From Gammaproteobacteria bacterium (GTDB taxonomy: Bacteria; Pseudomonadota; Gammaproteobacteria; Eutrophobiales; Eutrophobiaceae), in the NCBI GenBank assembly GCA_047618295.1, contig JBLHKL010000001.1:1-50467 (forward strand): a stretch of DNA of 50,467 nucleotides. The letters run 5' to 3'. The notes beneath the pieces were generated by a model. That model had not been told where the DNA came from and did not search any database. It saw nothing but the letters and a program-made list of their open reading frames with translations. Position numbers and translations under genes: made by a program. The stretch's first letter is position 1, and every line of letters starts with the position of its first letter. This document shows positions 14,746-15,186 of the stretch, piece after piece.

Positions 14746-15186
14746 ATGAAAATAACCAATATTCTGGCCAAAATCATGATCGTATCAGCAGTTTTGCTGC
14801 CAAATTTTGTCTACGCTGCTGACCATGTCATAAAAGCAGGACCACGCGCGTTTGAAACACCGATGCTTTATGTCGCTGAAGGCGACAAGGTACACTTTTC
14901 AAACATGGTTTCACATAATTCAGCATCAGTGGATGCATTAATCCCTGAAGGAGCAACACCCTGGGTTGGAAAGTTAGGTGAAGGTATTGCGCCAAAATTA
15001 GAAAAAGCAGGCATCTATTCTTATGTATGCCAACCACATATTGGTTTTGGTATGGTCGGTGTTATCATCGTTGGCGATGTTAGTGCTGATGATATAGCGG
15101 CCTATAAGCAAAAAGCAATTGATACATTAGAAGGGCCTTACCGAAGATTGCTTGGCAAAATCAACAAGATTAAACCAACCATCTAA
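14746..15186 (+). CDS. Pseudoazurin-type blue copper protein (cupredoxin)
   Basis: Signal peptide. Type-1 Cu ligands in pseudoazurin spacing: SHN (His), then C-QP-H-IGFG-M (Cys 15028..15030, His 15037..15039, Met 15052..15054). IPEGA and VGD blocks match Alcaligenes pseudoazurin, and there is a C-terminal helical extension. Confidence 0.85.
   Translation: MKITNILAKIMIVSAVLLPNFVYAADHVIKAGPRAFETPMLYVAEGDKVHFSNMVSHNSASVDALIPEGATPWVGKLGEGIAPKLEKAGIYSYVCQPHIGFGMVGVIIVGDVSADDIAAYKQKAIDTLEGPYRRLLGKINKIKPTI

Follow-up and report, generated by a model that had tools for sequence, protein, structure and literature searches.

Which protein takes electrons from a lanthanide-type methanol dehydrogenase when its gene cluster encodes no c-type cytochrome? 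The question is raised by the xox genes in a 50,467-nucleotide stretch of DNA (the window, i.e., the whole stretch that was analyzed), which is contig C1 of a Gammaproteobacteria bacterium assembly (GCA_047618295.1). The genome (2.2 Mb, 40.5% G+C, 96% complete) is that of an uncultured marine methanol oxidizer. XoxF, which contains pyrroloquinoline quinone (PQQ), predominates among the methanol dehydrogenases of the sea and of many soils. In the window, a gene for a secreted copper protein, paz, lies between xoxF and xoxJ, at the position that the cytochrome gene xoxG occupies in canonical clusters. We consider it somewhat probable that Paz would serve as the periplasmic electron acceptor of XoxF in place of XoxG.

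The copper protein in the acceptor position

The paz gene is preceded by a GGAG ribosome-binding site (14733–14736), and its product of 146 residues scored 42 bits against Pfam PF00127 (cut-off 21.2). The type-1 copper ligands are spaced C-x2-H-x4-M, and none of the four varied among 67 aligned homologues. The AlphaFold2 model computed from this alignment (predicted local distance difference test score, pLDDT, 93.6) has two C-terminal helices, at residues 114–127 and 130–139, as is typical of pseudoazurin. When the model was compared with the PDB in Foldseek, the top 27 matches were all pseudoazurins with target-normalized template modeling (TM) scores of 0.70–0.79; the closest PDB match by sequence was 3TU6 (E 1.2e-16). 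A preliminary description of the window had proposed a secreted cupredoxin with a complete type-1 site in pseudoazurin spacing, encoded between xoxF and xoxJ. Both points stood, i.e., His57, Cys95, His98 and Met103 lie at the coordinates it gave, and the gene is flanked by an XoxF5-type gene upstream and by xoxJ downstream.

Paz shares its fold, the ligand spacing and the two C-terminal helices with the pseudoazurins of denitrifiers, i.e., those of Sinorhizobium meliloti (3TU6), Achromobacter cycloclastes (1BQK) and Paracoccus pantotrophus (1ADW). However, it is only 25–34% identical to these proteins and near-neutral, and its score against the pseudoazurin equivalog model TIGR02375 was 69.5 bits, under the cut-off of 109.85. 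Canonical pseudoazurins are basic. By sequence and predicted fold, Paz represents a divergent pseudoazurin subfamily, marked by C-x-P-H-I-G-F-G-M-V-G and, C-terminally, by GP(Y/F)(R/K)R-x-(I/L)GK. Similarity to amicyanin (E 0.002–0.005 only) was too low to place it in that family. Having a single Cys (Cys95) and no CxxCH motif, it also lacks the haem-c site of XoxG and cytochrome cL (TIGR03874, TIGR03872), of which it is an analogue by position only. The computed isoelectric point (pI) is about 7.1 for mature Paz and about 5.5 for XoxF; electrostatics was dropped as an argument for docking, as a near-neutral Paz and an acidic XoxF argue neither way. In one relative with two xoxF copies (G005), a frameshift and one in-frame stop interrupt the frame of the xox-linked pseudoazurin (locus L071, 6001–6439 on contig C7 of that genome); this may reflect a genuine pseudogene or a fault in the assembly.

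The flanking genes identify the locus as a xox cluster. XoxF scored 616 bits against TIGR03075 (cut-off 480), its best PDB matches were the XoxF enzymes 6DAM (E 3e-222) and 6OC5 (E 7e-213), and the motif WDYDG, embedded in HDEWDYDGINE, marks it as lanthanide-type; it is 73–97% identical to the enzymes of relatives. XoxJ scored 250.9 bits against TIGR03871 (cut-off 212.15), with XoxJ 6ONP as its best PDB match (E 1e-39). The window thus resembles the canonical xoxF-xoxG-xoxJ cluster of Methylorubrum extorquens AM1 (6OC5, 6ONQ and 6ONP for XoxF, XoxG and XoxJ) in both proteins and in gene order, but where canonical clusters have a haem-c cytochrome, there is here a type-1 copper pseudoazurin. 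The preliminary description had seen no CxxCH motif in the flanking periplasmic open reading frames (ORFs). This holds for every plausible gene of the whole 50-kb window, where only short or antisense frames contain the motif. Moreover, no similar cytochrome was found within about 6 kb of paz in 80 related loci, so that neither the window nor these loci showed the cluster-encoded c-type cytochrome XoxG of a canonical xox cluster.

Two canonical clusters outside the order allowed a closer comparison. On plasmid pAZKH of Azoarcus sp. KH32C and on a plasmid of Roseomonas marmotae, genes annotated as PQQ dehydrogenase, cytochrome c and XoxJ-type binding protein follow each other in that order. Like the window, these clusters have companion genes of the orf124 and orf265 types: homologues of orf124 lie inside both (E 2e-10 in Azoarcus, E 9e-13 in Roseomonas), and a distant homologue of orf265 follows xoxJ in Azoarcus (E 4e-19). 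Because the Azoarcus and Roseomonas clusters also carry these companions, only the acceptor gene differs. The comparison strongly supports, at the level of gene content, that the position of paz is that of the acceptor, i.e., that the gene sets are homologous and differ only in the small redox protein. Of the earlier proposal that a pseudoazurin takes the place of xoxG, the replacement in the gene order is therefore strongly supported by synteny and by the canonical clusters; the transfer of electrons from XoxF to a cupredoxin is what we infer from it.

The genome itself provides an internal control. On contig C53 (8121–12695, locus L001), a second PQQ alcohol dehydrogenase of lanthanide type (WDYDG) has a PedF cytochrome c-550 behind it in the equivalent position, and then a binding protein. 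Family models were run on these three genes, and the cytochrome scored 171.5 bits against TIGR04494 (cut-off 122). We take the three genes directly upstream to be acetone-carboxylase/hydantoinase-like and the downstream gene to encode a sigma-54-type regulator, as read from their sequences. The gene content suggests a role of this locus in a secondary-alcohol or acetone pathway. A divergent PQQ dehydrogenase of 600 residues, with HDLWGYD, is encoded on contig C92 (159–4175, L004), and a similar dehydrogenase on contig C6. The neighbors of the C92 gene presumably encode a MarR-type regulator and a secreted cytochrome P460-like protein of 176 residues with a C-terminal CxxCH.

Conservation of the arrangement

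We analyzed how far the arrangement extends beyond the window. Among 29 loci of relatives, paz was followed by xoxJ and orf265 in 28, and xoxF lay upstream wherever the contig extended that far. Among 80 public loci found with the cupredoxin protein, 69 had the arrangement xoxF-paz-xoxJ-orf265. The remaining 11 were free-standing membrane-tethered paralogues, in which a lipoprotein signal and a long linker precede the same domain. According to their record titles, the public loci stem from metagenome-assembled genomes (MAGs) of uncultured Gammaproteobacteria, e.g., 'Thiotrichaceae bacterium UBA973/UBA7359/UBA4486', and one homologue is labeled Candidatus Eutrophobiaceae. A cultured representative was not found: all 80 public loci, and all named matches among 120 listed proteins, were from MAGs or metagenomes.

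An order-wide survey covered 126 species genomes, all of one family. An XoxF orthologue was found in 87 genomes, a paz homologue in 103 and both in 85. In 75 of the 87 XoxF-bearing genomes, from at least 25 genera, paz lay within 1 kb of xoxF, at distances of 126–607 bp. About half of the other 12 seem to be cases of a broken contig, as xoxF sits at its end or close to it; the remaining ones are unlinked or paz-less (G023, G071, G026, G034 and G117) or, in G090, have paz 2.2 kb away. Five genera without this XoxF, with 14 genomes in all, were also without paz (g41, g44 with 0 of 9, g45, g47 and g50). The synteny in relatives, which the preliminary description had made a check of its proposal, is thus conserved across most of the order.

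A pseudoazurin tree that was midpoint-rooted only places the free-standing paralogues at two points within the xox-linked sequences, which suggests, as far as this tree can tell, that linkage to xox is ancestral. Pairwise distances among XoxF, Paz, XoxJ and orf265 were all correlated in a mirror-tree comparison (r 0.61–0.81), confounded by vertical descent, and we set this correlation aside as uninformative about partners.

These counts bear on the idea that the linkage has no functional meaning, i.e., that the pseudoazurin serves another enzyme, such as periplasmic nitrate reduction or another oxidoreductase, and only hitch-hikes in the cluster. Paralogues of the same subfamily, free-standing or membrane-tethered, do exist away from xox genes, and on contig C126 there are two multihaem ORFs that we take to be NapB/NapC-like from their CxxCH motifs alone. 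Against this stand the constant place of paz in 75 of the 87 XoxF-bearing species genomes, from at least 25 genera, the joint loss of paz with this XoxF, and the partners that the genome appears to lack. The preliminary description had named co-regulation with nirK or nosZ as an observation that would speak against a role with XoxF. Searches of the 96%-complete genome gave no NirK (TIGR02376) and no NosZ (TIGR04244), the only cd1-like matches being weak β-propeller ones of 30 bits; the methylamine dehydrogenase heavy chain (TIGR02658) and mau genes were not found either. Since such absences come from incomplete assemblies, that of NirK and NosZ is not proven, but we rejected a denitrification role of Paz for this genome. 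Linkage by chance is thus very improbable in our view. The genome has one other cupredoxin gene (C19:22583–23035), in an unrelated context.

A proposed route from XoxF to the respiratory chain

We propose that an ancestor of the order replaced a cluster-encoded XoxG by a pseudoazurin. In this mechanism, lanthanide-PQQ XoxF would oxidize methanol, and the pseudoazurin would dock on XoxF through a patch around its exposed ligand His98. Cu(II)-pseudoazurin would then reoxidize the reduced PQQ in two one-electron steps, and Cu(I)-pseudoazurin would pass the electrons to the aerobic respiratory chain, either to a terminal oxidase directly or via a c-type cytochrome. Midpoint potentials are about +90 mV for PQQ, +170 mV for XoxG, +255 mV for cytochrome cL and +260 to +280 mV for pseudoazurins. 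With PQQ at about +90 mV and pseudoazurins at about +260 to +280 mV, transfer from XoxF-PQQ to pseudoazurin should be thermodynamically feasible. That a whole order of uncultured, mostly marine methylotrophic Gammaproteobacteria uses a dedicated blue copper protein, and not a cytochrome, to reoxidize its lanthanide methanol dehydrogenase, with paz-xoxJ-orf265 under a separate promoter of extracytoplasmic function (ECF) type, seems to us evenly poised between true and false.

Cupredoxins are known to accept electrons from quinoproteins, as the preliminary description had argued, and two precedents stand. In Paracoccus denitrificans, the chain of methylamine dehydrogenase, amicyanin and cytochrome c551i (1MG2/2GC4) likewise combines a periplasmic quinoprotein of a methylotroph with a cluster-encoded cupredoxin, but its cofactor is tryptophan tryptophylquinone (TTQ) instead of PQQ-lanthanide, and its cupredoxin is of another family. 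For the type II quinohaemoprotein alcohol dehydrogenase of Pseudomonas putida, azurin is the natural acceptor (PMC8348568). This enzyme also links a PQQ alcohol dehydrogenase with a blue copper protein in a respiratory chain; however, a haem-c domain is placed between PQQ and azurin, whereas XoxF has none. The copper protein would therefore have to take electrons from PQQ directly. No precedent was found for XoxF or MxaF enzymes themselves. A literature search on pseudoazurin, azurin or cupredoxin together with xoxF, xoxJ or lanthanide, with most subscription journals outside its scope, found no description of a cupredoxin in a xox cluster.

The closest solved XoxF, the XoxF5 of Methylotuvimicrobium buryatense (6DAM), is gammaproteobacterial and likewise has no cytochrome in its cluster. 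In the xoxFJ loci of gammaproteobacterial methanotrophs the acceptor position is empty, whereas here it is filled by a cupredoxin. The acceptor of methanotroph XoxF5 has been described as 'not apparent', and a xoxG outside the xoxFJ cluster has been proposed for these organisms (PMC6277846).

This methanotroph precedent favors a rival candidate: XoxF might hand its electrons directly to an XoxG-like cytochrome encoded away from the cluster, with the pseudoazurin further down the chain or as a parallel shuttle to the oxidase. The preliminary description had held that a bona fide xoxG elsewhere in the genome would argue against its proposal if its product were the only kinetically competent acceptor. 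We found no family-level XoxG or MxaG (best score 21.8 against the cut-off of 147.8 for TIGR03872, and 62 against 161.75 for TIGR03874), but sub-threshold homologues do exist, so that this objection applies in part. The cytochrome at C2:39312–39812 matched XoxG 6ONQ best in the PDB (E 1.3e-10) and is 32% identical to the cluster-encoded Roseomonas cytochrome (E 5e-19); two more distant XoxG relatives are encoded on contigs C173 and C147. The three small cytochromes are true relatives of XoxG: XoxG 6ONQ was their best match in the PDB and TIGR03874, 'methanol metabolism-related', their best NCBIfam model, and identities to the cluster-encoded cytochromes of Azoarcus and Roseomonas were 30–32%. 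Carriers placed behind the first acceptor have parallels in cytochrome cH after cytochrome cL and in cytochrome c551i after amicyanin. A further point in favor comes from a relative (G034), where a membrane-tethered pseudoazurin and an XoxG-like cytochrome that is 61% identical to C173:2289–2720 are neighbors (L167, contig C111, 5535–6212 and 7210–7674). The pair stands beside a gene that we take to encode an M20-type peptidase; a similar gene also flanks a tethered pseudoazurin in G023 (L132).

However, the scores of the three cytochromes against TIGR03874 (62, 45 and 48 bits) are far under the cut-off, and their genes are free-standing, with no conserved neighbors and no link to any PQQ dehydrogenase. 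In a family-level survey of 36 genomes (threshold for XoxG-like homologues E ≤ 1e-5), the distribution of these types was patchy. They were found in only 19 and 22 genomes, compared with 33 for paz. Twelve cluster-bearing genomes were without either type, among them the single-contig G031 and the 97–100% complete G002, G007, G014, G016, G028 and G036. We therefore regard an unlinked cytochrome as the direct acceptor as possible but rather unlikely.

Several further observations, besides the existence of these cytochromes, count against Paz as the acceptor of XoxF. G023 has xoxF-xoxJ-orf265 without paz in between and two pseudoazurins elsewhere. G026 (95% complete) also has xoxF-xoxJ-orf265 and shares the wider neighborhood of the window, its terminator and its promoter motif, but neither a paz homologue nor an XoxG-like cytochrome was found in this assembly. 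As G026 keeps xoxF-xoxJ-orf265 with no paz found, this XoxF type can, by its gene content, work without the cupredoxin in at least one lineage. Moreover, with G026 having neither, paz and the XoxG-like cytochromes do not show a clean either/or distribution among the genomes. The lineage-specific insertions of XoxF do not correlate with the presence of paz, and electrostatic complementarity between the two proteins is not evident. Finally, a strong, conserved terminator insulates paz from xoxF, and the motif GAACTT-N16-TC of the putative paz promoter is absent from the 620-bp leader of xoxF.

On the reading that we favor, with Paz as the acceptor, the conserved cluster-encoded pseudoazurin is a candidate acceptor of gammaproteobacterial XoxF5 that can be tested and, if true, would answer the question of what takes electrons from this enzyme. 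Paz would be the first cupredoxin to act as acceptor of an XoxF or MxaF enzyme, and the textbook chain from methanol dehydrogenase via cytochrome cL and cytochrome cH to the oxidase would gain a copper-based variant. Marine methylotrophy would then need copper beside lanthanides and less haem iron, i.e., methanol oxidation would be tied to copper rather than to iron supply. Annotation of xox clusters should in this case no longer treat a missing xoxG as a gap.

Transcription units and neighboring genes

The features of the xox module are listed in Table 1. From the terminators and the promoter motif, xoxF alone would form one transcription unit and paz-xoxJ-orf265 a second one under a putative ECF-like promoter; the hairpin that ends this second unit sits between orf265 and a convergent formate dehydrogenase gene.

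Table 1. Features of the xox module and their positions in the window
Feature	Position	Strand	Remarks
orf124, small secreted Cys-containing protein, function unknown	11454..11828	+	conserved companion gene upstream of the module
xoxF, lanthanide-type PQQ methanol dehydrogenase, XoxF5-like	12451..14388	+	645 residues, lineage-specific insertions
Intrinsic terminator directly after xoxF	14418..14453 (hairpin 14418–14443 and T-run)	+	11-pair stem, 8 G-C, then T10
ECF-sigma-like promoter motif, GAACTT-N16-TCTCA	14519..14545	+	GAAC / GTC boxes, aGAACTt-N15-GTCtnA; putative promoter, recognized by its motif
paz, secreted pseudoazurin-like type-1 copper protein	14746..15186	+	146 residues
Signal peptide of paz	14746–14817	+	24 residues, ends VYA|AD
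Ligand codons of paz	His57 14914–14916 (in SHN); Cys95 15028–15030; His98 15037–15039; Met103 15052–15054	+	
xoxJ, periplasmic binding-protein-like XoxF accessory protein	15256..16101	+	starts 69 nt after paz
orf265, secreted protein of 265 residues, function unknown	16118..16915	+	starts 16 nt after xoxJ
Terminator-like hairpin ending the paz-xoxJ-orf265 unit	16958..16993	+	15-pair stem

We surveyed 58 related xoxF-paz spacers for both signals. A hairpin with T-run like that behind xoxF was present in 56 of them, with compensatory changes in the stem, and the spacer was never shorter than 126 bp in related loci. The terminator also occurs in the paz-less G026. For the promoter, GAACnn-N14-18-GTC was found in 40 spacers, compared with a mean of 2.3 and a maximum of 8 in shuffled sequences, and 36 of these 40 had identical spacing; in 11 relatives the motif corresponds to invariant alignment columns. 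It also lies upstream of xoxJ in G023 and G026, which have no paz in between. Only four strict matches occur in the 2.2-Mb genome. The three others (GAACTT-N15/16-GTCnnA) are at C42:6534, C98:2367 and C174:1792, and we take the genes that follow, read from sequence alone, to encode a secreted cyclophilin-type isomerase, ClpS and an ErpA/IscA-like protein, respectively. The matches hint at a small regulon of ECF/sigma-E type that would include paz-xoxJ-orf265.

Canonical clusters differ in this respect, i.e., here a conserved terminator cuts off xoxF and the downstream genes have their own ECF-like motif, which suggests separate regulation of the dehydrogenase and of the accessory and acceptor genes. 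The terminator had already been noted as a caveat in the preliminary description. It is present, but the same conserved terminator also precedes xoxJ, whose status as a xox gene is accepted, so the caveat weighs no more on paz than on xoxJ and does not set paz apart from the xox genes. With the terminator in between, co-regulation of paz and xoxF is no more than a possibility. As a basis for such co-regulation, we looked for a shared motif and found no supporting one upstream of xoxF.

The separate unit raises the alternative that Paz is not a respiratory carrier but serves the xoxJ/orf265 unit, e.g., in redox maturation or reactivation of XoxF, where it could act on the vicinal disulfide, the extra Cys loops or the redox state of PQQ. 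It might instead handle copper during envelope stress, at which the ECF-type promoter may hint. The shared unit and putative ECF-type promoter with xoxJ and orf265, and not with xoxF, would fit such a role, as would the finding that G026 manages without Paz. Divergence of Paz also tracks XoxJ slightly better than XoxF (partial r 0.58 versus 0.21), but distance correlations are confounded by shared ancestry. Moreover, a complete and invariant type-1 site in a pseudoazurin fold marks a protein as a diffusible electron carrier, and the same position holds a bona fide electron carrier in canonical clusters. We hence hold a maturation or stress-related role to be quite unlikely, and keep to Paz as the probable acceptor.

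The XoxF enzyme has two lineage-specific insertions (encoded at 13231–13278 and 13930–13960 of the window) that carry Cys pairs, WCA...C and CPDC. Some relatives have the CPDC segment and others a shorter loop in its place, independent of paz. The insertions as an adaptation to docking were rejected, as the Cys loops also occur in G023 and G026, which have no paz in the acceptor position, and are missing in some paz-linked enzymes.

Upstream of xoxF, orf124 was found in most related loci; it matched no Pfam or NCBIfam model. In most relatives, a divergently transcribed gene for a SoxYZ-like carrier of about 283 residues lies between orf124 and xoxF. The sub-lineage of the window has 620 bp of non-coding DNA instead (11829–12450), and no close copy of the gene was found elsewhere in the genome (best 28% identity, contig C185). 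Downstream, orf265 is always co-located with xoxJ and kept in nearly all related loci. Its AlphaFold2 model (pLDDT 84.4) weakly resembles the LolA/LprG half-barrel fold (Foldseek E 1e-5, TM 0.28–0.38).

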